Both the position numbers and the translations under genes were made by a program. Source: an uncultured Pseudomonadota bacterium (GTDB lineage Bacteria > Pseudomonadota > Alphaproteobacteria > Rs-D84). Taken from it: a stretch of 64,000 nucleotides of DNA. The stretch spans positions 10,537 through 74,536 of the forward strand of contig CASETE010000023.1 in NCBI GenBank assembly GCA_949290785.1, read 5' to 3'. Below the pieces are notes generated by a model. It was not told where the DNA came from. It did no database searches and saw only the letters and a list, made by a program, of their open reading frames with translations. Below, piece by piece: positions 17,122 through 60,492 of the stretch (positions are counted from its first letter, which is position 1; each line of letters opens with the position of its first letter).

Positions 17122-17577
17122 TTAAAAACCGCATGCGAACCACATTCTGGACGCATCATCTACGGCGCCACCATTCCAACGAACTTGTATGCTGACGCCT
17201 GTTTCTATCTTGTTTGCGTAACTTACGGATATCGTTCCAATACCACCGTCAATCATTACTGGCAACGCCATAACAGTATATTCAGTATTAATAAACGAAA
17301 TCGGAAAAACAATATTAGCACTAACAGAAGTCCCCCCCTGTTCCAACCAACCCGACTTATATTTACGATACCAAGACAAACCGTCTTCTGACACAAAAGT
17401 ATCTGCAATTGTGTCACCTACTAAATCCTGACGCGCCAAGGCAAAACCGCCGGGGTTAATACCGTCATGAACCCGCAACGTATTGTTTGTTGTATCTACG
17501 GTTATTTCGCCTTCGGCGCCGACAAAAGTATTATGCTCAACGGCACTTCCGCGCCTGAACTGAACTTGACGAGACAT
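17122..17577 (-). CDS. Orphan phage fibre/spike-like protein (Mtd N-terminal-like domain plus tail-fibre C-terminal gp53/H-lectin-like domain)
   Basis: QVQFRRG...GAEGEITVDT...VHDG..PGG N-terminus; WYRKYKSGWLEQGG...FPISF C-terminus; AAGGA SD. Confidence 0.75.
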   Translation of the reverse strand: MSRQVQFRRGSAVEHNTFVGAEGEITVDTTNNTLRVHDGINPGGFALARQDLVGDTIADTFVSEDGLSWYRKYKSGWLEQGGTSVSANIVFPISFINTEYTVMALPVMIDGGIGTISVSYANKIETGVSIQVRWNGGAVDDASRMWFACGF

Positions 17578-18770: not shown

Positions 18771-20252
18771 TTAGAAAGAATACTTTATTCCGATATGCAA
18801 ACCAAACGATTGCCACGCAGCGTGTTTTAACTGCTCGCTGATATACTGCGTGCTGGCCGGCACAGTTTCTAAAATTGGGAAACCGTTATCGTCCAATATG
18901 TAAAAACCGTTTTCATCAACTAAATATTGACTATATTCCGCCAAATATAATTCCCCGCCGATTTTTCCGACATAGAAATAATCGGTATCTACTTTTATTG
19001 CCAATTGCATACGGTCTGATAATTTATAGTTATACTCCATTTCCGCGGTATAAGAGTATGCACCGTTATTACCTTCATCTATAAAACTGGGGTTTTGTTG
19101 CCAATCCGTTCTGTTTGGCCAGATACCTTCGGATGAATATTTCGGCAAACCAACCTGGAAATAAAAACGCAACTTGTCAACAAGGGTCATTTGTTTTTCT
19201 ATCTCAAGCCCGATATAAAAACCGCTCCACGTAGTATTATAAATATGCGTAGTACCGTCTACAAGTATAGGGCCATCACCGCCAATAATTACACATTCAC
19301 CAGAATCTACCCCCCATGGTACATACCCCATATCTGGATTGTAATCGCCGGTTACCAACTCTGTCCCCAGGTCAATTATTGCACCACCTGCGGGGGCCTG
19401 AACCAGTTTTATATCTTCCGGTGACATACACACCTGATACCAATCTTCTGGTGCCTCCATATTTATGGGCAAAGCATAATAATTACCGTTTACGTCACCG
19501 TAAACATAGTCGCCCATGTTCGTCATTAATGGTAAAAAGATGCCAGGGTTAGGATACAAATGATCTGACATTTCCAAGTTATGATTGAAAATTTCATAAC
19601 CAAACGACGGGGATAACTTCCATCCGCCAATGTCCCAAATATGATGTGCGCCGATTCCTAACTTCAAGTGATTTGTCTTGCCCGTCTGATCGCCAACAGA
19701 AATAGTGAAAATTCCATAAGAAGGGTCTGATTCATCATACGGCTTTAAGTCATAATCCATGGACAGTCCACCATGTGACATATACCCCATACTATATTCA
19801 CCGTAAGCAAACATATCAAAATTACGCAAACTGAAATTGTGTTGCACGCCAACGCCAATTTCATTATAAACCATATCATCCCATTCTAAAACGGAATTTA
19901 CGCCTGTTTCAAACTCAAAATCTGCGAACCTTCTGGCATATTTAGCGTATACAGACGTTGCTGGTTCTTCGGCAACAGGCATCGCAATACCGTTCGTCGT
20001 CATCGTACCGCTAATTTGCGGGACCACCGGTCGCGGAACCTGATAAGAGTAAGAACGACTTTCAACAATTTGCTTCCCCCCCGATTGACCAACATATGTC
20101 GTGTACCCTTGTCGCTGATATTGATTGTACGCCGAACGATTAACCGTTGTTGTTGAATTGTTCTGATAATAAGAAGGTACCCCTTCGTTAGACGCCAGCG
20201 CAACGAAAGGCATAAAAAACACACTTAATAAAGAAACTACACTTACTCTCAT
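18771..20252 (-). CDS. Outer-membrane beta-barrel, omptin-fold/Protochlamydia Pom-like
   Basis: Signal peptide, SVLEW, SMDYD, IWPNRTDW..NPSF motifs, terminal GIKYSF barrel signal. Confidence 0.6.
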   Translation of the reverse strand: MRVSVVSLLSVFFMPFVALASNEGVPSYYQNNSTTTVNRSAYNQYQRQGYTTYVGQSGGKQIVESRSYSYQVPRPVVPQISGTMTTNGIAMPVAEEPATSVYAKYARRFADFEFETGVNSVLEWDDMVYNEIGVGVQHNFSLRNFDMFAYGEYSMGYMSHGGLSMDYDLKPYDESDPSYGIFTISVGDQTGKTNHLKLGIGAHHIWDIGGWKLSPSFGYEIFNHNLEMSDHLYPNPGIFLPLMTNMGDYVYGDVNGNYYALPINMEAPEDWYQVCMSPEDIKLVQAPAGGAIIDLGTELVTGDYNPDMGYVPWGVDSGECVIIGGDGPILVDGTTHIYNTTWSGFYIGLEIEKQMTLVDKLRFYFQVGLPKYSSEGIWPNRTDWQQNPSFIDEGNNGAYSYTAEMEYNYKLSDRMQLAIKVDTDYFYVGKIGGELYLAEYSQYLVDENGFYILDDNGFPILETVPASTQYISEQLKHAAWQSFGLHIGIKYSF

Positions 20253-28331: not shown

Positions 28332-30596
28332 ATGAAAAGATTTATCGCAGTACTTAGTGGTTTGTTGGTTTTACCCGCTTTTGCAGAGGTAGCACCCGCT
28401 TATTATTACGAAGAATTGATGGAGTATTCTGATGAATACTCGGAGCCTGCAGAAACAGAACAACAGCAGGAACAGGAAGAAAAAAACGACACAAAACAAG
28501 TCGCACCGGTCGTTCCCGTTACGACGACTTCCGTCAGCCCGCGTACAGCAACAGGTAGAATAACCGCTTCACGTGCAATCCCTTCTACTAGCACGACCAG
28601 CGGTCGCAATACCGTATCAACAAGAACAGTTTCTCCGGCTCGTACAGTTACAGCAAGAACAGCTGCGACAAACACCGTTAACACAACCACAGCAACAAGA
28701 ACTGTGTCATCAGGTCGTCCAACAACAACAGGACGCACGGCGACTACTTCTACACGTTCTATTACACCGGTACAAACAGTAACAACGCGTCAAAGTTCTG
28801 CTAACGCTAACAAAGTGCAAAACGCAAGGGCTTCCATCGTACAAACAGATACCGTTGCAACACCACTATACGTCAGCAGCAGAATAGGTACAAGCACTTC
28901 AGCGGTTCGTTCACGTACGCCTACAATTCGCGCGGGGACAACCACTACAACAACTACAACAGACACAACGTCCAGCATGTCATTAGATGAACTGGCACAG
29001 GTTACTGATTTTTGCAAGGCTCAATACACCGCTTGTATGGATAACTTCTGTAACGTGTTAGACGATAATCAAGGTCGTTGCAGTTGCAGCGCGAACTTGA
29101 AAAATTACGCAGAAACAGAGGCTGCCTTGAAGCAAGCAACCGAAGAATTACAAGACGTCGCCCAAAAAATCCAATACATAGGTCTAAGCGCTGATGAAAT
29201 AGAAACTCTGTTCACACAGACCGAGGCTGAATTAGAAATGCAGACGACAACTGATAATACTCAGCTGAAAAACGACCTTGATAAAATCAAAAAGATGATT
29301 ATCGACGTTGAAACAGGAAAAGCATCTTCTACAACAACCAGCGGTTTAAGTCTAGATTTGACGGGTCTGTTGGACTTTACAATTGACAGCACTGGGTTTG
29401 ATTTAGGTGCATTACTGGGAACGTCTTCGGACACCAGCAGCATCAGCAATCAACGCGGTGAACAACTGTACAAAACTGCGGCGGCACGTTGTAAGGCATC
29501 TGTATTAAACAGTTGCGCCGCACAGGGGGTTGATATAACTGTCATAACAAATTCGTATGATTTGGAAATTGATAAGCAATGTATCATATACGAACGCAGT
29601 TTAACTGATTCTAATGACCAAATGAGCGCGACCGTCAGAAACGCAAAAAGCGTTTTACAAAAAGCGCGTCTATTGGTTGCACAACAAAAGAACACGTATG
29701 ATTTACGTGGATGCGTAAACGCCTTAGACTCTTGCATGCAAGACGACTTCGTCTGTGGCAGCGATTATGAAAACTGCTTGGACCCAACCGGAAAGTTTAT
29801 CGTCAATGGCGAAATCGTTATCGGCAGTAAACCAGGTGTACCAGGTGACGTTGAAAACGGCGCAATATATGACACTTGGACATACGACAATAATAAAAAT
29901 GCTTGGAGCGAAACAGGTTTATTAAGCGACTATATTACAAAAACAGTTACAGCAAATGCCGCACAAAACCCGTCTACAAACATGTCCGAATTTTTACAAA
30001 ATAAAATCGGATATCACGATGATAAAGACGGTAAAAATTACGGTATGTGCATGTCTGTACTAAATAAATGCCAAGACATTACTTATACCGGCAACGGTCA
30101 AAACTTAAAATACAACCCAACAAATGATGTAATTAAAGAGTTCTTGAACCGTACGCTGATACAAATAAAATCTGCCCAAGATTCATTGTTATCAGAATAT
30201 GCCGAAACATGCATAACAGATGTATCTTCTTGTTTGGCGCAAAACAATTACAATACTTTGAACCCGACAAGCATCAATATAGCAATCAATGCATGTAAAG
30301 CAAATATAACAACTTGTATGTCTGCAACGGGCGCAACAGGAACAAGCATTCCCGACATGGCCGATTGGGTAGGACAAGTATTATCAAACCCAACATGCCC
30401 TTCTAATGCAACAGGCACATATCCAGATTGCGTTTGCACCAGCACAACAGCAACATATGTACCAACTGCAAACGTATGTATGTCATGTCCAACAGAAAAC
30501 GCACAGACTGGTTCAAAATATCCTAATTGCCAATGCAATTCAGGCTATACATATAACCAGAAAACTAACACGTGCGAACAAAATGCAGAACCTTAA
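28332..30596 (+). CDS. Exported cysteine-rich hypothetical protein with Thr/Ser/Arg low-complexity stalk
   Basis: Signal peptide (AFA-E), about 150 aa rich in T/S/R, 26 Cys by hand count, own promoter and terminator. Confidence 0.85.
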   Translation: MKRFIAVLSGLLVLPAFAEVAPAYYYEELMEYSDEYSEPAETEQQQEQEEKNDTKQVAPVVPVTTTSVSPRTATGRITASRAIPSTSTTSGRNTVSTRTVSPARTVTARTAATNTVNTTTATRTVSSGRPTTTGRTATTSTRSITPVQTVTTRQSSANANKVQNARASIVQTDTVATPLYVSSRIGTSTSAVRSRTPTIRAGTTTTTTTTDTTSSMSLDELAQVTDFCKAQYTACMDNFCNVLDDNQGRCSCSANLKNYAETEAALKQATEELQDVAQKIQYIGLSADEIETLFTQTEAELEMQTTTDNTQLKNDLDKIKKMIIDVETGKASSTTTSGLSLDLTGLLDFTIDSTGFDLGALLGTSSDTSSISNQRGEQLYKTAAARCKASVLNSCAAQGVDITVITNSYDLEIDKQCIIYERSLTDSNDQMSATVRNAKSVLQKARLLVAQQKNTYDLRGCVNALDSCMQDDFVCGSDYENCLDPTGKFIVNGEIVIGSKPGVPGDVENGAIYDTWTYDNNKNAWSETGLLSDYITKTVTANAAQNPSTNMSEFLQNKIGYHDDKDGKNYGMCMSVLNKCQDITYTGNGQNLKYNPTNDVIKEFLNRTLIQIKSAQDSLLSEYAETCITDVSSCLAQNNYNTLNPTSINIAINACKANITTCMSATGATGTSIPDMADWVGQVLSNPTCPSNATGTYPDCVCTSTTATYVPTANVCMSCPTENAQTGSKYPNCQCNSGYTYNQKTNTCEQNAEP

Positions 30597-31972: not shown

Positions 31973-34666
31973 CTAAAACCTTAACACACCGCGTATATTG
32001 CCAGAATAGTTATAGTACCCTTGCCTAATGGCAAAATCTGCACCGAACGTTACATCGTAAACTTCACCAACACCTAATTTTAGTTTTATGCCCCCGGACG
32101 TTTGCCAATGCGATAAACGTTGTGTAGCAATAGAATATTCATTTCCCATTATAAGCACGTTTATATCTTCAACAGCCGCGTGCCAATCATATGATGCCCC
32201 TAATTCTATTATAGGCGTAATCGTCAATTCATCGTCATAACTGAAATTGTATTCTGCGGACAATCTTGCATACGTGGTTAAAAAATCTAAATTTGCGTTT
32301 GATATTTCTTGACCTGCTGTATCAACAGAAGAACCGCGATGAACCGACATGTACCGAGTACCTATATAAGGAATAACATTTAATTTATTAATCGGCAAAA
32401 CGTAACCGATGTCAGACCATACACCTGTTGTATAAACATCCGTGTTATCAAACAAGTGTATACCCGCAACATTTTTCGTTTCATCCATGTCGGTATAGAA
32501 AAAACTTGCATAATTATTCCAAACTAAACTCTCATCGTCATATTTCGCGTAAATACCTATACCATGCGTCGGCGCCTTAATCGACCTTGCCCAGCTTGTT
32601 AATTCATCATATTGATATGTATACGCAGCGCCTAAATTCCAATTAGAAACGTTATATTCTGCGCCTAAACCTAAACCATATCCATAAGCATCAAAATCCG
32701 CATAAAAATCGTTTTCTTTTAGTTTGCCACCAGAACCAAACATCGCACCCCATAACAAGCCTTTACCAACATAATATTCCTGTCTGTCATGCACCATGCC
32801 ATCAAACCTGTTAATATACGAATTACCAAGCGTCTGCATCAGTGGCGCAGGTGAAGGCGCCAAAGCAGTTAACGCCTTTATATACTCAACCGCATCTAAT
32901 TGAACCAATTCATTTAGTTTTTCATAAACTTCATTCGTTACGCTGTTATCGGTCAGCAACATATCCTGCCATCCAAGCGCGGTATTTTCATTATTTTGCG
33001 TTCCACCAGCATTTTTTATAACGTCTAGTATTGAACTTGCTTCAACTACCTCGTACCAACCATTTCCTAATTTTATAAAATCATAAATATTATTATTTAT
33101 TTCCGGAAAGAAGTTATCTGTTATGACCTGATTACTGCGCAATAATTGTAATCTTAAAGAATCAGTACCAGACATAGCATTACTACCAAGAACCACATCA
33201 ATTGCGGCGTTTTCTGATATATTGAATGAATCAGACGTTAAAAAACCATAATTATTAGCATCTTGAACAGACAAACGTAAAATGGCACCAGATTGAAAGT
33301 TTGCAGAAGTAACCGTTGCATTTGTTAAGCCTAAATTTAAAACGCCACCTGAAACGGTCAAATCATTTGCATTAAAAAAATTACCGCTATCTGTAACTGT
33401 TACAACGCCGGATTCTATTGTTACGTTACCCGTGAAACCCGACATATCTTCGTTTAGAACGATGGTACCTCCAGATGGCATTGTATCATTTTCCAGTTCA
33501 TATGCTCTATTCACAATCAACGAACCAGAACCTGTAATCTTGTCATTAAAAGTTATCTGATATTGTGGCGCCGCATTTAAAAATAACGATTCAGACGAAT
33601 AAATCGCATTAGATTCACCGGACACTGTATTTCCGCTAAATACGATATCCGCGTTCTGAGCAATCAAAAACAACGCATTTAAATTAAATATTGCACCGCC
33701 ATTATCTGTTGCAGAATTATTTGTAAAACTGCTATCTATTATATACATATCATCCCAATTATACACCGCACCACCGTACGTAGCACTGTTACCTGTAAAA
33801 CTGGAACTTTTTACAACTGCATATAAAGTATCACCCACTATACCATAGTTTGAAATCGCACCACCTGTTTGACCCGCATTATTTTCAAACGTACCGTTTT
33901 CAAGCTCCATCATACCCGTGCTATAAATTGCACCGGCGCCTTGACTGCCGGTATTCCCGGAAAAATAAACTTCACTTAATGTAATGGTATTTGAATTATA
34001 TATCGCCGCACCACTTGATGCTGTATTTGAAACAAACACACCATTAGATATAGTCAAATTACCATCATTAAACGCAACTCCTCCATATTGACCAGACGAA
34101 TTACCCTGAAAAAAACTGTTGTTTATAATCGCATTCGTACCGTATTGTGTATATATTACACCACCATTTCGTGTTGTGCTGTTATCCTCAAAAACGCTGT
34201 CGGACACAATTAAAGAAGCGTTATTACTCTGATAAAAAACGCCACCACCTAAACGTGCGGAATTGTTTGTAAAAGCAGAGTCAGATACAGTCAAACTGCC
34301 ACCAAGGTTTGCAAATACCGCCCCTTGTCCAGACTGATAAAATTTATTAAAAGAACTATTCACATTGGCCGTTTGACCAGAAACAGTAAAACCGCCGCCG
34401 TTCGTCAAAGACATCACATAACCATTTGACACTGTAAAGCCGTTAAACGCACCGCCATCAAAACCAAAACCGCCACCGTTAATTATCGTACTTTCTGCAC
34501 CAGGCACACTTATTAAACGAGTGGACGTAATATCTCCGGTCATATTTATGCTGTTTTCTGTGGCATAGTTTTTATACGCGTTATAAAAATCATTAAAATT
34601 ATTTACGTCTGTAGCATATGCCCTTGAACAGACAATAAACGATACAAAAAAAAGCGATTTTTTCAT
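31973..34666 (-). CDS. Autotransporter with polymorphic-membrane-protein (FxxN/GGA[IV]) repeats
   Basis: Signal peptide, about 9 FxxN...GG(A/V) repeats, C-terminal beta-barrel ending GVLRF. Confidence 0.85.
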   Translation of the reverse strand: MKKSLFFVSFIVCSRAYATDVNNFNDFYNAYKNYATENSINMTGDITSTRLISVPGAESTIINGGGFGFDGGAFNGFTVSNGYVMSLTNGGGFTVSGQTANVNSSFNKFYQSGQGAVFANLGGSLTVSDSAFTNNSARLGGGVFYQSNNASLIVSDSVFEDNSTTRNGGVIYTQYGTNAIINNSFFQGNSSGQYGGVAFNDGNLTISNGVFVSNTASSGAAIYNSNTITLSEVYFSGNTGSQGAGAIYSTGMMELENGTFENNAGQTGGAISNYGIVGDTLYAVVKSSSFTGNSATYGGAVYNWDDMYIIDSSFTNNSATDNGGAIFNLNALFLIAQNADIVFSGNTVSGESNAIYSSESLFLNAAPQYQITFNDKITGSGSLIVNRAYELENDTMPSGGTIVLNEDMSGFTGNVTIESGVVTVTDSGNFFNANDLTVSGGVLNLGLTNATVTSANFQSGAILRLSVQDANNYGFLTSDSFNISENAAIDVVLGSNAMSGTDSLRLQLLRSNQVITDNFFPEINNNIYDFIKLGNGWYEVVEASSILDVIKNAGGTQNNENTALGWQDMLLTDNSVTNEVYEKLNELVQLDAVEYIKALTALAPSPAPLMQTLGNSYINRFDGMVHDRQEYYVGKGLLWGAMFGSGGKLKENDFYADFDAYGYGLGLGAEYNVSNWNLGAAYTYQYDELTSWARSIKAPTHGIGIYAKYDDESLVWNNYASFFYTDMDETKNVAGIHLFDNTDVYTTGVWSDIGYVLPINKLNVIPYIGTRYMSVHRGSSVDTAGQEISNANLDFLTTYARLSAEYNFSYDDELTITPIIELGASYDWHAAVEDINVLIMGNEYSIATQRLSHWQTSGGIKLKLGVGEVYDVTFGADFAIRQGYYNYSGNIRGVLRF

Positions 34667-47860: not shown

Positions 47861-47934
47861 TGGCAGGGGCAGAAGGAATCGAACCCTCATCCGCGGTTTT
47901 GGAGACCGATATTCTACCGTTGAACTATGCCCCT
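47861..47934 (-). tRNA. tRNA-Trp (anticodon CCA)
   Basis: AGGGGCA/TGCCCCT acceptor stem, CTCCAAA anticodon loop, GGTTCGATTCC, encoded CCA. Confidence 0.95.
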
Positions 47935-48164
47935 AATTCAATTACTGTACTCGCCGTCTTTTATACCGCCGACCCCAATGATCTGCGTTACAATAGCACA
48001 ACTATACAGAAAATCAAGTGGAAAGTATTATAAGATTTTAATTCATAACAAGCAAGCAAAAATTATTCATCATTTTTAATTAAAATATGATTTTTCTACA
48101 CTTTTTACTTGCATAGACGTCTAATTTTTTTCTACAATCTTTGTAATAACAGGGAGAGGAACAC

Positions 48165-48848
48165 TTGCAAGACCGCATAGAACCGCCAATTTTGCTATCT
48201 AGATTGATGACATTCGTGTTCGCAGGAATGCTGGTTATTTTGTTTGCTTTGCTGTTTACGTTATATAACATGTTCCCCGTAAATCGCCCACAAGTGTTTT
48301 TCTTGATGTCTCGCCCAAAAAGCAACATGCAAATAGTGTTACGCGGAATGGCGCCTTTGGATGAAAATTTCATAGAATACGAAAAAGCATTCATCTTGGA
48401 ATACGTAAAGGCAAGAAACGAAATCGTGCCTAACGCTGGGGTAATGCGCACGAAATGGAATAACAATGGACCAGACAGCGTCGTTCACGCGTGGTCAACC
48501 CAAGACATTTATAACAAATTTACGCAAACTAATATGTGGAACGCTTGGATGTCTGACCTGCCAGATTTTGAGTTTTCTTGCAGCGTGGAATTTGATAATA
48601 ATGCGCTGACTCCGCACGCAGAAGACACTTACATCGTAAAATTTTATTATTTCTGCGCAGATAATAATAGACAGCTGGATAAAAAAGAGTATAGAATAAA
48701 AGTAAAAGTCGATAAAAGCGATAACGCGCAAATAGATTGGTCAGATCGTTTGAATAACCCATTGGGACTTCGCGTTTCGGAATACGAGATAGAGTCTGGA
48801 AACGGCGACCCACTGGATACAGGTTATTCAACAGAAATGAGTATGTAG
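48165..48848 (+). CDS. VirB8-family type IV secretion protein
   Basis: Single N-terminal TM, FILEYVKARN helix, RLNNPLGLRVSEY (NPxG motif); TTG start with GAGG SD. Confidence 0.8.
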   Translation: MQDRIEPPILLSRLMTFVFAGMLVILFALLFTLYNMFPVNRPQVFFLMSRPKSNMQIVLRGMAPLDENFIEYEKAFILEYVKARNEIVPNAGVMRTKWNNNGPDSVVHAWSTQDIYNKFTQTNMWNAWMSDLPDFEFSCSVEFDNNALTPHAEDTYIVKFYYFCADNNRQLDKKEYRIKVKVDKSDNAQIDWSDRLNNPLGLRVSEYEIESGNGDPLDTGYSTEMSM

Positions 48849-48874
48849 TCAAAAAAAAACGGAAGGAAAGAAAA

Positions 48875-50419
48875 ATGTTTTCAACAGGTGCAAAGTTAAA
48901 TATATCTATATTTTGTTTCTTTTTAGTTTGCTCTGTTTGTATATCAGACAACGCAATTGCGATGAATTATGGCGTGCAAGACGCTTGGAATAACCCATCT
49001 GCAAACATGACCGCCGGCAGTATGAAGCCGGGCTATGCGCAATTGACGTGGTCAAAGGGTACGGTTTTACCCGTTAAACTACGTAACGGCATGGTAACAA
49101 TGATAACGTTGCCAAACGGCGAACAAATAGAAGATGCAGTGGTTGGAAACAAGAACTTATTTTCCTTTGACGCGACCAAGGGCGGTAATACCATACTAAT
49201 TACCCCGGAAAAAAGTAACCAAGGATCTGACACGAACTTTATCGTAACGGGAAAATCTGGCAATCAGTATATATTCTATCTGCGCAGCGAACCTTCAAAC
49301 GCCAGCGAAGTTACCTATTCTCAAGTAGAAGTCGTTCTGGACAATAACGCAGTATTACCAAATGCCGGCGGTTCAACAGGCGGGGCGGTGGGTGGTTCAT
49401 CGTCCATATTTAAAAAGGTATCTTCGGCAGACAGTAATACCGTCGGCGTTGACGGCGAAGATTATGGTTGGATAAAATCTATGAAAATTGACCCGTCAGA
49501 GTTTAGATTTGACTTAGATATATTCGTACCAAACCCAGATGATTATGTAATTGCGCCTGAACGCGTATGGCGCGATAGAATATTTACTTACATAGACTTT
49601 GGCGACAAGGTCATATCAATGACGCAAAGACCGGTTGTTTCTTTACTGGTAGAAGGCGGTGAATCACCGGTTGGTTTCCGCACAGACGGTGAAGACGGTC
49701 GTCTGTTAATAGTAGAAGCGGTCGGCGATATGGTTTTGCGCAGCGGTCAGCGTATCGTCTGTATAAAGAAACGTGAAAAACCGTTCTTGATTGCAGATAC
49801 CGCATCCGTAATGGCGTTGGCAGAGGCAAATATCGCACAAAGTATGATGTCCGGACAATCTTTAAACAATATTGCGTATAACGCAGATTTATCAGCAATG
49901 AATTATGGCGTAGGTAACTATACCACTACACCAACGTTTGTTGGAAATAATATGACCGGCGGCACAACAGCAGGATATTACATGCCGGCAGGTTACGGCG
50001 TTCCGGCCGCAAATTATGGAACCAGTAGCGGCGGCGGCGTTTCAATGATACCAACAGAAAGGTTAACAGCGGGTTCTTTCTTACCACAGTCAAATATACC
50101 GCTGATTACCACGAACCAATCTGGCGTCGCGGTAGAACTGAAATCTGACACATCTGTAAAAGCGCTGGAAGATTATTGGACGACTTTACTGGCAAAGTTC
50201 AGCGGTGAAAACGGTCAAGGCTTGCTGACGCCTTATAAAGACATGGTATTCTTTGCTGTTGACGCCCAAGGTGTTGGCGATTTGGGTTCAGAATCGTCCA
50301 CGGCACGTTTGTATCGTTTACGCATCGGGCCGATGTCAGATATTGACACAGCGCAAACGCTGTGTGACAAGTTAACTGCGTCCCAAGGGGTAAGTTGCAG
50401 CGTTGTCAGAATACAGTAA
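48875..50419 (+). CDS. VirB9/TrbG-family protein with C-terminal SPOR-like domain
   Basis: Signal peptide, TMITLP.GE.I, TNFIV.G...Y.FYL, P.RVWRD..FTYIDF; C-terminal YRLRIGP......A..LC..L.....C. Confidence 0.75.
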   Translation: MFSTGAKLNISIFCFFLVCSVCISDNAIAMNYGVQDAWNNPSANMTAGSMKPGYAQLTWSKGTVLPVKLRNGMVTMITLPNGEQIEDAVVGNKNLFSFDATKGGNTILITPEKSNQGSDTNFIVTGKSGNQYIFYLRSEPSNASEVTYSQVEVVLDNNAVLPNAGGSTGGAVGGSSSIFKKVSSADSNTVGVDGEDYGWIKSMKIDPSEFRFDLDIFVPNPDDYVIAPERVWRDRIFTYIDFGDKVISMTQRPVVSLLVEGGESPVGFRTDGEDGRLLIVEAVGDMVLRSGQRIVCIKKREKPFLIADTASVMALAEANIAQSMMSGQSLNNIAYNADLSAMNYGVGNYTTTPTFVGNNMTGGTTAGYYMPAGYGVPAANYGTSSGGGVSMIPTERLTAGSFLPQSNIPLITTNQSGVAVELKSDTSVKALEDYWTTLLAKFSGENGQGLLTPYKDMVFFAVDAQGVGDLGSESSTARLYRLRIGPMSDIDTAQTLCDKLTASQGVSCSVVRIQ

Positions 50420-50440
50420 TATATTGATTGCGGATATAAT

Positions 50441-52870
50441 ATGAGCACTATAAAACAACAAATTTCTGATTTACGTAAAAATACGCCAAAGCATATTCAA
50501 TGGCTATTATTGGCGGCTGCGTTTGTCGTTGTAATGATTCTGTTAACGTTGCTGTTAACAAGTAAAGAAAAAGAAAAAATTGAAACGACTGAATCGGTGG
50601 CGATACAACTGAAATTTGACCCGGAAATTATAGACATGTCAAACACAATGGTTGGAACAAAAACAACCAGACAAGTCAATTTATCAACAAACGCCCCTAC
50701 AAAAATCGTTGAAGTAAATTTTCTTGAACAGGTTCCTGGTTTAAGCATAAATCAAACATGCGTTGCTAAAAATCAGATAGACGCTAAAAATAATTGTACT
50801 ATCACCTTGGACTATCAACCGACAAGTGATGTATCTACGAAAATTGTTGAATTAGTTGTAAAGTGGCACGGTGCCCAAGAACCCGCTGCAATGACTAAAT
50901 CAACGAACCAAACGGTCGTTATAAGTGCGCAAGCACCAAAACAAGAACCGAAACCAGAACCAGCGCCACAACCAGAACCCGAAACAGAAACCGAACCTGA
51001 ACCTGAACCAGAACCGGTTAAAACGGTAAAGCAGGAAATAAAACAAGAAATCAAAGAAATTGCACCATCGGATCCATTTATAGATGCCGCACCTAAAACG
51101 GCACCTGAAACGCAACCTGTAAAACCGGCAGAGTCTTGTTCTGACTTTGCGTTTCCTGGATACAACTTATCAGGTGTGCAAAGCGGTTGGATTCGTCCAG
51201 AGGCAGGCGCGTATTATTACCATCCTTTTTCAGATAAAAATTGTGACAGCCCGACAGGCGTATACAATCCTGATACAGGTATAATAACAGACATCAACGA
51301 TAATATTACGAAAATAGGAACAGATGCGGAACACATCGGTTATACCAACGTTATAAACCGTGAAATTCCGCAATTATCAAATCCTGCACCTAAAAAAGAA
51401 AAAAATCTTGCGCGGCAATTAACAGCCGACGAATTGGCCGCGTTACCACAAAGCGCCGATGCAACAACAGAAACAGGCAATATTTTTAGAATAACATTAA
51501 ACGATCCTAAAACTAAAATTTATACAGGCAGCAGTAGTGAAAGCGCGGTTTTTTCATCTGACCCATTTGACAGAAAATTCGTATTAAGACAATATAAACC
51601 AATTCCTGCAACAATCGTATCCGAAGTTCGCGCAGACCCTTCTTTATATAATTGCCCAGACGGTGGCGGGGAATGTAAAGGACAAACATTACCAGTACGC
51701 GCAACAGTTGATAGAAACGTATATTCTGATGATGGTCGTACTGTTATTATACCAACAGGTACGTTGCTGTTGGGATATGTAACCGGTGAATTACCTGGAC
51801 CATACAAATCAATTGGTCGTATGCAAATAGAATGGTATCAATTTATATTACCAAATGGCGTTGAATTCAATTTTCATGGTAACAACCCATTTTCTGGCGA
51901 CTCACAGGGGCGCGCGGGGGTTCCGGGGCATGGCAGTACAGACTATGTTGAACAAATTGTTATGCCAATGCTGACCGCGATTGTTCCAGCTGCGGTAAAT
52001 ATGATTGCACCAATCGCAGATACGTTTGTTAACCAAATTGATTTGGATAACAATACAGTTGTTCAATCAGGTACAGTACGTTCATCTGAATTGGCAAAGA
52101 ATGAAATAATAAATGCATGGAATCAGGTTGCACAGAAATTACTGGTTGATGCAATGGACAATACAATACCACCATTTTCAATTGCAGCCGGTACACGTAT
52201 AACAGTCTTTTCACCAGAAGATTTGGTAATTACATGTGGCAACGATGACACAAAAGAATGTTCTGTTAAAAACGTTAAAGAAAACACCAGTCTGGATGAT
52301 ATACGCAATCTACGTAATGATGAATGGGATACGAAAGGCCCAACTGTAAAATATGAAGATTCTTCGTGGGTTGGTCAGGTACGTTCGTTTAATCTGAGAG
52401 AAGACTATTGCACAAAAGGTTCTAACGGTCTTTTTGAGATTAATAAAGAAAAAATAGAAGACATTTATAAATCTGGCTATGATTACAGAACTGTTTTGGC
52501 ATATTGTCAGTCGCTAAATTACCAAGCGATAAACAACGCAAAACAAAATGCGTATTATCAGAACCAAACAACAACTTTCCAGACAACCTATGGACAACCC
52601 GGCAGTCAAACGACCGAACAACAACAGGCATATAATGAAGATATACTTGGTTTAACTTATGAAGATGGGGTTATTCAAAACCCGTTCCAAGATAATAACA
52701 GTGCGGAAACCTTGCCTGTGGAAACGCCTACGAACGTATTAATCTGCCCTGATGGCACAATCCCAGATGAATACGGTTGTTGCGCAGGTGAAATTTATAC
52801 AGATATGGGCGACCAAGGGTTCAATTGCTGTCCAGAAACAGGTGGCGATTGTTTCCCGCCCATAAAGTAA
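50441..52870 (+). CDS. VirB10/TrbI-family protein with Ig-like domain, Pro/Glu linker and Cys-rich tail
   Basis: N-terminal TM, IPATI, RATVDRNVYSDDG..VIIPTGT.L.G, DSQGRAGVPG, IPPFSIAAGTRITVF...DL. Confidence 0.8.
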   Translation: MSTIKQQISDLRKNTPKHIQWLLLAAAFVVVMILLTLLLTSKEKEKIETTESVAIQLKFDPEIIDMSNTMVGTKTTRQVNLSTNAPTKIVEVNFLEQVPGLSINQTCVAKNQIDAKNNCTITLDYQPTSDVSTKIVELVVKWHGAQEPAAMTKSTNQTVVISAQAPKQEPKPEPAPQPEPETETEPEPEPEPVKTVKQEIKQEIKEIAPSDPFIDAAPKTAPETQPVKPAESCSDFAFPGYNLSGVQSGWIRPEAGAYYYHPFSDKNCDSPTGVYNPDTGIITDINDNITKIGTDAEHIGYTNVINREIPQLSNPAPKKEKNLARQLTADELAALPQSADATTETGNIFRITLNDPKTKIYTGSSSESAVFSSDPFDRKFVLRQYKPIPATIVSEVRADPSLYNCPDGGGECKGQTLPVRATVDRNVYSDDGRTVIIPTGTLLLGYVTGELPGPYKSIGRMQIEWYQFILPNGVEFNFHGNNPFSGDSQGRAGVPGHGSTDYVEQIVMPMLTAIVPAAVNMIAPIADTFVNQIDLDNNTVVQSGTVRSSELAKNEIINAWNQVAQKLLVDAMDNTIPPFSIAAGTRITVFSPEDLVITCGNDDTKECSVKNVKENTSLDDIRNLRNDEWDTKGPTVKYEDSSWVGQVRSFNLREDYCTKGSNGLFEINKEKIEDIYKSGYDYRTVLAYCQSLNYQAINNAKQNAYYQNQTTTFQTTYGQPGSQTTEQQQAYNEDILGLTYEDGVIQNPFQDNNSAETLPVETPTNVLICPDGTIPDEYGCCAGEIYTDMGDQGFNCCPETGGDCFPPIK
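50934..51016 (+). repeat. Degenerate 6-nt coding repeat (GAACCN) giving an EP/PE linker
   Basis: gaaccg aaacca gaacca ... gaacct gaacct gaacca gaaccg. Confidence 0.7.
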
Positions 52871-52877
52871 GCAAGAT

Positions 52878-52903
52878 CCCGCCAATTTGGCGGGTTTGTT
52901 TTT
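52878..52903 (+). terminator. Terminator of the virB8-10 operon
   Basis: CCCGCCA-ATT-TGGCGGG followed by TTTGTTTTT. Confidence 0.8.
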
Positions 52904-52970
52904 AACTAATATTGAAAATCATAGGAGGTATAACTATAACAATATAAACAAACTTAAATACGATTTTTAT

Positions 52971-53166: not shown

Positions 53167-53517
53167 ATGACATCGCAAAACATACAAACTTTATATACAG
53201 CAGAAAAATTTCAAAATGCAGAACAATTGTGGTTTTGGTTCTTGTATTCTAAATCTGTACAAAACGGTTTCTTGCGAACAAGAACAAATTGCACTAAACG
53301 TCCGTGCGAATTATTAGACGTAGAATCGTTGATTACAAAATTATATCTTTCTGGACGACTAACCGAAGAACAATTGGACGTGATGAAAAAATTTGGTGAC
53401 CGCAGGCGCGCGCCTCATCAATATATATGGGCCGAAAATCGCGCAGCAGATTTATGGCGACGCGCAATGCTGGTATTAGAAAACGCCGCAAAACAACGCG
53501 GTTGGATTGAACAATAA
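53167..53517 (+). CDS. Hypothetical protein (F..AE..WFWF...RPCE..D...LY type)
   Basis: AGGAGG SD, 116 aa; motif pattern recalled from Rhodospirillales-type hypothetical proteins. Confidence 0.8.
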   Translation: MTSQNIQTLYTAEKFQNAEQLWFWFLYSKSVQNGFLRTRTNCTKRPCELLDVESLITKLYLSGRLTEEQLDVMKKFGDRRRAPHQYIWAENRAADLWRRAMLVLENAAKQRGWIEQ

Positions 53518-59304: not shown

Positions 59305-60492
59305 CTAGTGAAATATATAACAATCAATTCCGGCGTTGTCTGCCCTGCTTTTTACGTTTTGCGCAGAACTGTCCGATAAGCCATTTGCACGAACACGATA
59401 CATTCCGTTTGGCGCATCTTCAATTACCGTGCTGATGCCCAGTTTATTCTTAACAAGGCTGACCTGTTTTTGTGCGGCGCTGCGCGAAGAAAAAGCACCA
59501 AACTGTACCCCTGCCCCACCGGCAGTTAATTTATTTTCAGTTTTTTTCACGGCGTAATTATCAGTACTTTTATGTTGCGACGCACCAGTTGTAGCAGCGT
59601 TATATGCAGCCCTGAAAGTCGGCGCTGAATAATCAGCTGAATAATCAACAGTTTGCGCAGGCGCATAATAAGTCTGTGACATAGAAGGCACCTCGCCGCT
59701 ATCAACCATAGCAAAACCCTTATTTAACAGTTTTGCCGCAGTATTTGCACGAACATCTTTGTTTTCAGCGCCTAAAACGACAGATATTAAATGATGATTA
59801 TCACGTTTAGCCGTTGCAACCAACGAATAGCGCGATTTGTTAGTATACCCTGTTTTCATACCATCACACCCAGGATAAGTCCCCAGCAATCTGTTACCGT
59901 TAGTATAAGTTTTACCGTTATAAGTCCACGTTTTGATACTGAAATACTTCCAATATTGAGGGAAATGCTTATAAATTGCCATGGACAATAGCGCTATGTC
60001 ACGCGCAGTAGATAATTGGTCATCGTTCGGCAACCCAGACGAATTTTCAAAATTAGTCCCAGACAACCCAATTTCATTTGCCACGCGCGTCATTAGTTCT
60101 GCAAAATTACCCTCTTTCCCACCTTTCAAATTTTCTGCCAACACGCGCGCGACATCATTAGCACTTAACACCGTAAGCGCTTTTATCGCATCTTCTACTT
60201 TTATTTTACTGCCGGCAGACACCCCAAGTTTGACAGGTGACGCAGCCGCCGCAGATTGCGAAACAATCAAATAATCGTCTAAATGCAAACGTCCGTGTTC
60301 CAACGCATCAAACGTTAAATACAACGTCATAATCTTAGTCAAACTGGCAGGATAATTTTGAACGCTTGCGTTTTCCTGATAAAGTATTCGCCCGCTATCC
60401 ATATCTGCAACCAAAGCGGCCTTGTACTGCGCCGCAAAAGCAGTGCCACACATAAAATATGTAACAAGAAAAATCCCAACCAACCTTTTCAT
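59305..60492 (-). CDS. D-alanyl-D-alanine carboxypeptidase (S11) with C-terminal SPOR domain
   Basis: PASLTK, SAND, KTGY; VQFGAFS...YRVR. Confidence 0.92.
   Translation of the reverse strand: MKRLVGIFLVTYFMCGTAFAAQYKAALVADMDSGRILYQENASVQNYPASLTKIMTLYLTFDALEHGRLHLDDYLIVSQSAAAASPVKLGVSAGSKIKVEDAIKALTVLSANDVARVLAENLKGGKEGNFAELMTRVANEIGLSGTNFENSSGLPNDDQLSTARDIALLSMAIYKHFPQYWKYFSIKTWTYNGKTYTNGNRLLGTYPGCDGMKTGYTNKSRYSLVATAKRDNHHLISVVLGAENKDVRANTAAKLLNKGFAMVDSGEVPSMSQTYYAPAQTVDYSADYSAPTFRAAYNAATTGASQHKSTDNYAVKKTENKLTAGGAGVQFGAFSSRSAAQKQVSLVKNKLGISTVIEDAPNGMYRVRANGLSDSSAQNVKSRADNAGIDCYIFH

Follow-up and report, generated by a model that had tools for sequence, protein, structure and literature searches.

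What is an operon for three core proteins of a type IV secretion system (T4SS), virB8-virB9-virB10, doing beside the RNA polymerase genes of a gut bacterium with a genome of about 1 Mb? The operon lies in a stretch of 64,000 nucleotides (nt) from contig CASETE010000023.1 (positions 10,537 to 74,536 of the forward strand), here called the window, and its source lineage is Candidatus Enterousia, of the order Rs-D84 in the Alphaproteobacteria. The original prediction, made from the letters of the window, saw in it a stand-alone, domesticated core. That view does not hold, for the same genome carries virB3-virB4 and virD4 on contig C11, virB11 on contig C2 and five VirB6-like genes on contig C17, and the operon is almost certainly one islet of a near-complete, scattered T4SS. 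The best explanation is a chromosomally fixed P-type (VirB/D4-like) system, to which the operon gives the VirB8 scaffold and the VirB9/VirB10 core. We regard it as probable, with moderate confidence, that the whole is a vertically inherited, VirD4-dependent and contact-dependent machine that exports protein towards a partner cell.

The domain calls of the original prediction all stand above their Pfam cut-offs. VirB8 is matched over residues 3-210 (profile positions 8-211 of 213; E 4.4e-11, 43.5 bits against a cut-off of 23.2), VirB9 by CagX over residues 56-299 (E 9.4e-23, 81.5 bits; cut-off 34.2) and VirB10 by TrbI over residues 385-596 (E 3e-17, 63.5 bits; cut-off 35). The NCBIfam equivalog models tell of great distance: VirB9 scores 57.7 bits against a cut-off of 217.7, VirB10 scores 60.7 against 220 (T4SS_VirB10, E 1.3e-16), and VirB8 is recognised by no NCBIfam model. 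Since these scores fall far below the cut-offs, the three proteins must be very divergent members of their families. Single-sequence searches of the PDB gave one weak ComB10 match for VirB10, two weak VirB8 matches for VirB8 and none for VirB9. When shorter VirB9 relatives were looked for, fragments of this family were all that came up, with no canonical VirB9 named among them.

The assembly (999,534 bases in 23 contigs, 97.4% complete, 1.1% contaminated, G+C about 0.40) holds T4SS genes in at least five separate places on four contigs, among housekeeping genes. A whole-genome search for VirB4, VirB6, VirB11, VirD4, ComEC and DprA, the targets proposed with the original prediction, found all of them, VirB6 by a transitive profile. 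The Pfam families of VirB4, VirD4 and VirB11 match solely on contigs other than that of the operon, and three relaxase families (PF03432, PF08751 and PF03389), the only ones searched, have no match in the genome, with controls that rang; by these searches the 64 kb are indeed free of virB4, virB11, virD4 and relaxase genes, as had been said. The Walker A motif is GPTGGGKT at residue 448 of VirB4 and is intact in VirD4 and VirB11 as well. The product of virB3 is matched at 1.3e-12 to 3.6e-8 by the open reading frames (ORFs) in the VirB3 position of four related clusters. About 76 kb from virB3-virB4, virD4 is flanked by genes for rRNA modification and for the envelope.

Several genes beside these islets deserve mention. 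Starting 4 nt past the end of virB4, where plasmid clusters have VirB5, there is a gene (C11:4678-5295, minus strand) for a secreted protein of 205 amino acids (aa) with an HExxH-like HEDEH motif and no family. About 1.2 kb past the virB3-virB4 string lies the gene for a 1034-aa protein without Pfam or NCBIfam family (C11:391-3495, plus strand), in which a central hydrophobic block rich in Gly and Ala (residues about 425-580) stands between long, charged, coiled-coil-like stretches; its location makes it a candidate for a substrate of the T4SS or an accessory protein. Beside bamA, a second VirB8-like protein (locus L192:5034-5735, minus strand; 233 aa, bitopic) scores 21.9 bits, just under the Pfam cut-off of 23.2, and has no NPxG motif, whereas the main VirB8 has NPLG. 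Five of eight further Enterousia genomes have a weak second VirB8 match of this kind, which in one case passes the cut-off, whereas four genomes of other families have none. The string of genes after bamA (C2:48386-49734, minus strand), in which the second VirB8-like gene is followed by ORFs of 215 and 263 aa without family, may be a further T4SS islet.

All the parts are conserved across the order and are under purifying selection. VirB9 is present in 40 of the 41 Rs-D84 genomes sampled (30 of 30 of high quality), VirB4 in 100 of 101 (90 of 91), VirD4 in 100 of 101 (91 of 91), VirB11 in 96 of 101 (91 of 91) and one VirB6 paralogue in 56 of 61 (49 of 51), and the reading frames are open in nearly all of the matches. 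Ratios of non-synonymous to synonymous substitution (dN/dS, by NG86 in 11 close pairs) are 0.00-0.25 for virB8, 0.01-0.07 for virB9 and 0.03-0.34 for virB10, compared with 0.00-0.07 for nusG and 0.02-0.11 for yidC. The presence of VirB4, VirB9, VirB11 and VirD4 in 95-99% of the Rs-D84 genomes searched, among housekeeping neighbours and under purifying selection, bears out the idea of a chromosomal, vertically inherited system. Failed domain calls, a patchy distribution or relaxed selection had been named beforehand as grounds for abandoning it, and none of the three was observed.

How far is the position of the operon itself conserved? A scan for VirB9 relatives with one genome per species gave 198 stretches, and synteny in Enterousia was read from the best 80, which are 70-97% identical. 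Among these, virB9 and virB10 are adjacent in 80 of 80, virB8 is with them in 77 and nusG is upstream in 74, the six loci without nusG all being truncated upstream; the downstream side varies in some species (orf116 in 72 of 80, yidC in 61 of 80). At 12 loci from five other Rs-D84 families virB9 and virB10 again stand together, with virB8 detected in six by BLASTP of ORFs, and none of nusG, rplK, rplA, yidC, lspA or kefB is found near the operon in any of the 12, over about 7 kb on each side where the contig allowed. The genomes of these other families have VirB4, VirB9 and VirD4 tens of kilobases apart or on separate contigs. Because they too scatter the parts, and do so with no nusG near the operon, dispersal is a property of the order, and the address beside rpoBC is a trait of Enterousia. 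The predicted location beside rpoBC and nusG is therefore fixed in the genus but does not extend to the other families.

The multiplied VirB6 came from a screen for membrane proteins. There are 31 ORFs with at least five predicted helices, of which 29 were scanned and eight have no Pfam family; five of these eight are contiguous at C17:14106-20715, the minus strand carrying one and the plus strand four. The five are remote paralogues of each other, detected by BLASTP at E 1e-14 to 1e-4 for several pairs and too diverged for detection in many others. An equivalent array of co-oriented genes for proteins of 400-990 aa is present in ten of ten genomes of other Rs-D84 families, with five genes in nine of them and four in one. 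Of 44 array proteins from these families, four match Pfam TrbL/VirB6, and two of the four pass the cut-off of 25.9 bits by a narrow margin (26.2 and 26.1). With these two relatives as seeds, a profile search run through 979 ORFs (those of at least 150 aa in the genome itself, plus the ten loci) converged on 54 proteins, namely the five of the genome (E 1e-56 to 1e-87) and 49 array genes, with no others. In the ESM Atlas, one of the five lies near a cluster, ranked third (score 0.94), in which 49% of members have TrbL. We take the array to be a putative five-fold VirB6 family, by transitive homology rather than by a direct match. At one such locus in another Rs-D84 family (genome G055, L182:3540-6500, minus strand) a 986-aa VirB6-like paralogue has a Peptidase_M23 domain inserted (E 1.9e-21), and this insertion would put a peptidoglycan hydrolase inside a channel subunit.

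VirB9 and VirB10 are a textbook pair, and both are here built in an uncommon way. The N-terminal β-sandwich of VirB9 superposes on VirB9 of Xanthomonas citri (6gyb_b; VIA-align Z 13.9, root-mean-square deviation (rmsd) 2.2 over 103 residues) and on a chain of the F-plasmid outer-membrane core (7spb_C1; Z 11.0). An alignment of 27 sequences from six families shows the C-terminal domain, which lies within the Pfam CagX match, to be nearly invariant across the order, with dense invariant columns from D196 to R300. A variable, low-complexity linker then leads to a SPOR domain, of the peptidoglycan-binding family PF05036 (Pfam E 4.9e-6, 27.2 bits; cut-off 21), which has two invariant cysteines and is closest in structure to the SPOR domains of RlpA (6i0n_A; Z 8.8, rmsd 2.4, 77 residues) and CwlC (1x60; Z 6.5). 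This end is aligned through residue 514 in 12 of 12 loci from other Rs-D84 families, and in five genomes outside the order VirB9 matches likewise run as far as residue 513 or 514. No SPOR match was seen in the closest plasmid VirB9, of 432 aa, and the literature searched nowhere mentions VirB9 and a SPOR domain together. A D-Ala-D-Ala carboxypeptidase encoded in the window (59305-60492, minus strand) is likewise SPOR-ended (E 1.4e-7), so that SPOR tails recur in this small genome.

For VirB10, 26 sequences were aligned, ten of them from other families. After the membrane helix comes an immunoglobulin-like (Ig-like) domain that Foldseek likens to ASH/PapD-like structures (6fvi, 2.5e-5; 2e6j, 1.1e-4), with Pfam ASH matching under its cut-off (E 0.0049); its Cys107 is invariant and its Cys119 at least 90% conserved. 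A linker rich in Pro and Glu joins it to a small β domain marked by the invariant columns C233, G245, G249, C268 and G293 and by a dN/dS of 0.00-0.09 (six pairs). The barrel is matched by Foldseek to CagY (2.3e-10), TrwE (5.2e-10), X. citri VirB10 (1.7e-9), the pKM101 outer-membrane complex (3jqo, 1.6e-8) and ComB10 (4e-7); a profile search of the PDB ranks ComB10 (6.1e-10) as the best sequence match among solved structures, with CagY at 3.1e-6. The C-terminal tail beyond the barrel has no aligned counterpart in the ten sequences of other families and no usable match in the ESM Atlas. The highest dN/dS, 0.19-0.76, belongs to its helical part (residues 599-765), whereas the Cys-rich end (residues 766-809) is conserved, at 0.00-0.10.

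The marks of a P-type T4SS are thus found in one genome: VirB4 with an intact motif, the VirB8/VirB9/VirB10 core, VirB11 with VirD4, and VirB6/TrbL on indirect evidence. The cargo, the recipient cell and the part played by the SPOR domain are inferences. VirB10 would be held in the inner membrane by its one helix and would span the periplasm by means of the Ig-like domain and the Pro-rich linker, while the outer-membrane pore would be made of its barrel, its antenna helices and the invariant C-domain of VirB9. The SPOR domain of VirB9 could tie the core complex to peptidoglycan, maybe replacing the undetected VirB7 lipoprotein. VirD4 would recruit protein substrates, and VirB4 and VirB11 would drive their export through a VirB6-lined channel into a contacted partner cell, which may be bacterial or eukaryotic. 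A bacterium that has given up most biosynthesis, and so lives in dependence on a partner, would have a use for such export. The presence of a coupling protein in a genome with no detected relaxase points to protein rather than DNA as what is exported, and the failure to detect VirB2 and VirB5 points to close-contact working with no long pilus. Working in this way has been argued for Rickettsia (PMC2653234), and killing of neighbouring microbes has been proposed for basal extracellular Rickettsiales (PMC11077975).

Several observations weigh against this reading. None of the genome's own five VirB6-like genes matches Pfam TrbL directly, and hhalign, set to compare the VirB6-like profile with four plasmid VirB6 sequences, returns a probability of 1% (E 0.049), its one aligned stretch being the P-x-x-L-x-G-Y-x-F-(D/E)-x-T region. 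The C-domain of VirB9 is poorly modelled as a monomer, with a predicted local distance difference test (pLDDT) score of about 30. The low NCBIfam scores imply that function is not simply transferable from model systems. VirB2 (the pilin), VirB5 and VirB7 were not found, and without them there is perhaps no pilus and a different mode of working: Pfam TrbC (VirB2) has no match in the genome, Pfam T4SS/VirB5 is over its cut-off in none of 13 genomes in a search whose control was silent too, and our own VirB2, VirB5 and VirB7 profiles, built from four to seven plasmid sequences (for VirB7, one query), match nothing, these being short, fast-evolving proteins that are easily missed. A search with Ank_2 gave a single match, under threshold, to a 1234-aa ORF on contig C4, and so there is no sign of effectors directed at eukaryotes; the ATP/ADP translocase family PF03219 has no match either, in a search that is uninformative since the control genomes were silent too. 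ComEC (C23:74739-76712, just past the end of the window) and DprA (C6:109419-110036), lastly, are both present.

This last pair leads to the first alternative, that the system takes up or releases DNA, importing it in the manner of Helicobacter ComB and passing it to ComEC and DprA as a supply of nucleotides or genes. Its appeal is that DNA would be valuable to Rs-D84 bacteria, described in their genome study as lacking nucleotide biosynthesis (PMC12306168). ComB10 is moreover VirB10's best sequence match among solved structures, its NCBIfam model also matches VirB10 (6e-12, 45.4 bits), and neither a relaxase nor VirB2 or VirB5 was found. The T4SS_VirB10 model nevertheless scores higher on the same protein, and ComEC and DprA, being present in 11 of 14 control genomes, are generic. 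Pilus-based uptake could in any case be served by a separate ATPase of the PilB/GspE type (C9:5515-7152, 553 aa; Pfam T2SSE 3.2e-64), a sign that the genome also encodes some components of type II secretion or of a type IV pilus. The Helicobacter ComB system is not known to use VirD4 or VirB11, whereas both proteins are conserved here; with their intact Walker A motifs they would favour export over ComB-like uptake, and we consider a DNA-uptake function improbable.

A second alternative is a machine for surface display and adhesion, which would translocate nothing and would grip a partner by the variable tail of VirB10 and the VirB6-like proteins. The fast evolution of residues 599-765 in a tail confined to the genus is what one would expect of such a surface, as is the strong divergence of the five VirB6-like paralogues. 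The precedent for surface display, Bartonella Trw, is built on multiplied VirB2 and VirB5 pilus subunits (PMC4676284), yet neither of these was found here, and the conserved VirD4 would have no obvious role in a machine for display only; we judge adhesion alone to be quite improbable.

Could the genes be the decaying remnant of an integrated plasmid or of an integrative and conjugative element? The closest named VirB4, that of Erythrobacter aureus at 31.9% identity, does belong to a contiguous virB2-to-virD4 plasmid cluster beside a MobA/MobL relaxase. Set against this are the open frames in nearly all genomes, the strong purifying selection, the synteny among housekeeping genes fixed in 80 species-level loci, a distribution that is anything but patchy, the want of a match to the three relaxase families and a G+C of 0.41-0.42 for the operon region, within the 0.35-0.45 of the rest of the window. 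A quick maximum-likelihood tree of VirB4, with SH-aLRT support, agrees: its 30 chromosomal rows form one clade (SH-aLRT 93) apart from the five plasmid rows, the Erythrobacter plasmid protein coming next and four canonical plasmid VirB4 proteins forming the outgroup. Each genome family that has two or more rows stays together, apart from a single row that has a long branch and an internal stop, and the Rs-D84 rows lie inside a starred clade of 21 rows, with a support of no more than 63 for their own monophyly. Decay of a mobile element is thus very hard to believe. A VirB8-VirB9-VirB10 core that works without other T4SS parts is hardly conceivable, for although no other T4SS gene was found in the window, the other parts lie elsewhere in the genome and are conserved alongside the core order-wide.

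This type of T4SS is not confined to Rs-D84. In an even draw of 401 alphaproteobacterial genomes, VirB4 is matched at E 1e-90 or better in 35 (30-42% identity outside Rs-D84), a VirB9 relative occurs in 36, mostly as ORFs of 410-605 aa, and the VirB6-like profile matches in 34, many with tandem copies (no more than four are scored per genome); the VirB4 and VirB6-like sets overlap in 32 genomes. Outside Rs-D84 the carriers belong to about 16 families and have genomes of 0.9-2.5 Mb. Four loci from outside the order are contiguous, running from a virB2-like gene through virB3, virB4 and several unknown genes to virB8 and virB9, with the VirB6-like genes elsewhere; three of the four clusters have a tandem pair of VirB8-like genes, and VirB4 is single by Pfam in five of five out-of-order genomes. 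We considered whether these families might be carriers of the rvh T4SS of Rickettsiales, and the hallmarks of rvh that were tested are not seen in them (VirB4 is single, and the clusters are contiguous with a VirB2-like gene). A profile of 14 outgroup VirB4 sequences found, as named sources among the matches listed, Telmatospirillum sp., Rhodospirillaceae bacterium, Sphingomonas sp. and 'Alphaproteobacteria bacterium', and no Rickettsiales name appears among those matches, where about one row in six had a source name at all and seven of the 120 listed named an organism. Many small-genome alphaproteobacteria thus share one type of chromosomal T4SS, and Enterousia seems to have it in its most dispersed arrangement.

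The coordinates of the features are collected in Table 1.

Table 1. The T4SS operon, its signals and protein domains, an adjoining tRNA gene and the T4SS genes on other contigs (window positions unless a contig is named).
Feature	Location	Strand	Description
Ribosome-binding site GGGAGAGG	48152..48159	+	5 nt upstream of the virB8 TTG start; read off the sequence
virB8	48165..48848	+	227 aa, TTG start; bitopic inner-membrane protein; NPLG (NPxG) motif near C-terminus
virB9	48875..50419	+	514 aa; signal peptide, N-domain, C-domain, low-complexity linker, SPOR
VirB9 N-terminal β-sandwich, residues 52-160	49028..49354	+	pLDDT about 80-90
VirB9 C-terminal (outer-membrane core) domain, residues 196-300	49460..49774	+	inside Pfam CagX
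VirB9 SPOR (peptidoglycan-binding family) domain, residues 413-514	50111..50416	+	pLDDT about 80-86
virB10	50441..52870	+	809 aa, envelope-spanning subunit
VirB10 transmembrane helix, residues 17-40	50489..50560	+	predicted helix over hydrophobic stretch
VirB10 Ig-like (ASH/PapD-like) β-sandwich, residues 57-164	50609..50932	+	pLDDT about 90; conserved order-wide
VirB10 small conserved β domain, residues 238-295	51152..51325	+	pLDDT about 79-87; no family assigned
VirB10 β-barrel (TrbI) domain, residues 369-597	51545..52231	+	antenna helices H501-522 and H548-574
VirB10 C-terminal extension, residues 599-809	52235..52867	+	genus-specific; helical part and Cys-rich end
Intrinsic-terminator-like hairpin CCCGCCAATTTGGCGGG, then TTTGTTTTT	52878..52904	+	terminator scan and sequence; 7-bp GC-rich hairpin with T-run at 52878-52894
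tRNA-Trp (CCA)	47861..47934	-	ARAGORN; divergent upstream neighbour, context only, outside the system
virB3	directly upstream of virB4, contig C11		98 aa, two helices; weak Pfam match, E 0.0012
virB4	contig C11:5300-7714		804 aa; TIGR00929 E 5.1e-115; Pfam CagE_TrbE_VirB 2.1e-14
virD4	contig C11:83099-85318		739 aa; Pfam T4SS-DNA_transf 5.2e-51, with TraG-D_C and TrwB_AAD_bind
virB11	contig C2:20545-21540		331 aa; TIGR02788 E 1.1e-45; between priA and lpxI

The three genes sit exactly at the predicted coordinates, on the same strand and with intergenic gaps of 26 and 21 nt, and they end in a terminator of their own, as had been read from the sequence. The tRNA gene and nusG are both on the minus strand upstream, which confirms the divergent layout; beyond the tRNA gene nusG is followed on that strand by rplK, rplA, rplJ, rplL, rpoB and rpoC. 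A scan for the σ70 consensus gave 19 promoter-like matches against a mean of 18.7 in shuffled sequence, and because this is no excess we name no promoter. Downstream come two small ORFs without known family, then yidC, lspA and more housekeeping genes. The first of the small ORFs, orf116 (window 53167-53517, plus strand), lies just past the terminator and has 62-97% identity among its Enterousia copies and a dN/dS of 0.04-0.13; it has neither a family nor a predicted membrane segment, and it was not found beside the operon in loci of other Rs-D84 families.

The window has 47 ORFs of 150 aa or longer, and a Pfam scan that took in 29 of them brought out several other proteins. One of 897 aa (31973-34666, minus strand) carries repeats of the Chlamydia polymorphic membrane proteins (E 8.4e-14) and is possibly an autotransporter-like adhesin; a second chlamydia-like envelope protein, of 493 aa (18771-20252, minus strand), matches the Protochlamydia outer-membrane family Pom (E 1.7e-9). 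A 151-aa ORF (17122-17577, minus strand) combines Mtd_N (major tropism determinant) with a Gp53-like tail-fibre C-domain and adjoins a gene for an SLT_2 lytic transglycosylase, no phage genes having been noted close by, and a 754-aa ORF (28332-30596, plus strand) has no Pfam family at E 1e-5 or better. In a genome of another Rs-D84 family (G029, L106:5285-5359) ARAGORN finds a tRNA-Ile with the anticodon AAT, which is unusual in bacteria, GAT being normal.

What does such a system mean for the organism? The 2025 genome study of the order (PMC12306168) places Enterousia in the uncultured Rs-D84, with genomes of 0.7-1.0 Mb, describes these genomes as without amino-acid, nucleotide or lipid biosynthesis and without respiration, glycolysis being incomplete, and proposes an obligate symbiotic or parasitic life. 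The words 'secretion' and 'T4SS' occur nowhere in its main text, and in the literature searched no T4SS is described for Enterousia or Rs-D84, though earlier work on Enterousia may mention one. Public records automatically annotate the parts as 'TrbG/VirB9 family'; the genes themselves are thus already known by annotation, and what is new is the picture at the level of the system: a fully dispersed T4SS in the core genome, a five-fold putative VirB6 array outside Rickettsiales, a SPOR-tailed VirB9 and an enlarged VirB10. For these widespread gut bacteria, in which dependence on a partner was proposed with no mechanism named in that account (PMC12306168), a T4SS kept in nearly all high-quality genomes is the most concrete candidate mechanism, and the question of lifestyle becomes testable. 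T4SS biology for its part gains a VirB9-SPOR fusion and a VirB10 to which an Ig-like domain and a Cys-rich tail have been added.

Set beside known systems, the machine shares with Agrobacterium VirB/VirD4 homologous VirB3, VirB4, VirB8, VirB9, VirB10, VirB11 and VirD4 and the gene order virB8-virB9-virB10. In the Agrobacterium pTi record VirB8 has 237 aa, and VirB9 and VirB10 have 291 and 372 aa against 514 and 809 here, which agrees with the original prediction that the latter two are much longer and remodelled. Unlike the genes here, the clusters of alphaproteobacterial plasmids are contiguous from virB1 or virB2 to virB11 and virD4, include VirB2, VirB5 and VirB7, and in some cases have relaxases; among the matching plasmid records, which number at least 5000, none has a VirB4 more than 31.9% identical to this one. 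The likeness to Helicobacter ComB lies in a chromosomal, non-conjugative system, in the presence of ComEC and DprA in the genome and in the sequence match of VirB10 to ComB10, whereas VirD4 and VirB11, which ComB is not known to have, are present here. In structure, nothing matches the VirB9 N-domain better than the core of the bacteria-killing X-T4SS of X. citri (6gyb), which is also among the top matches of the VirB10 barrel; in sequence the likeness is marginal (profile E 0.026 and 0.0013), and the two are compared by their core folds alone. By analogy, a gut bacterium could profit from killing its bacterial neighbours or exploiting them. The T4SS of Patescibacteria is likewise chromosomal and kept in host-dependent bacteria with tiny genomes, but it is described as homologous to monoderm conjugation machinery (PMC12102498), in contrast to the diderm VirB9/VirB10 type found here.

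The closest comparison is with the rvh T4SS, whose hallmarks are duplicated RvhB4, RvhB8 and RvhB9, multicopy RvhB6, the lack of VirB5 and dispersal in islets (PMC11077975, PMC2653234), a design called a bona fide rickettsial signature in 2024 (PMC11077975). The original prediction drew this comparison on the strength of scattered islets, and it gains from the dispersed parts and the multicopy VirB6. Like rvh, the Enterousia system is chromosomal and vertically inherited in a reduced alphaproteobacterial genome, with islets among housekeeping genes and five diverged VirB6-like paralogues in an array; VirB5, which rvh lacks, was not found here, the control of our search being silent, and the deviant second VirB8 is perhaps a further likeness. 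Unlike rvh, it has a single VirB4 (by Pfam and by our own profile) and a single VirB9 (one CagX match each in 13 of 13 genomes, and one VirB9 in the genome itself by protein search), both of them duplicated in rvh. Its virB11 and virD4 are solitary genes and do not come after virB10, and the VirB6 array is not joined to virB3-virB4. The SPOR domain of VirB9 and the Ig-like domain and Cys-rich tail of VirB10 also set it apart, and its host order is Rs-D84, not Rickettsiales (PMC12306168). The system resembles rvh in several respects, and we do not file it as rvh; it is either another example of the 'anomalous' design with five VirB6 copies and islets, or related to it. That the Enterousia/Rs-D84 machine and rvh descend from one ancestral chromosomal T4SS, which already had a multiplied VirB6 array, is a tentative and rather doubtful idea. 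If it is true, 'rvh-like' secretion would be no signature of Rickettsiales but a tool of at least 16 small-genome alphaproteobacterial families in the draw, a SPOR-anchored VirB9 would mark an outer-membrane core that is put together in its own way, without VirB7, and very common gut bacteria of people and livestock would be using an rvh-like machine to live on other cells.

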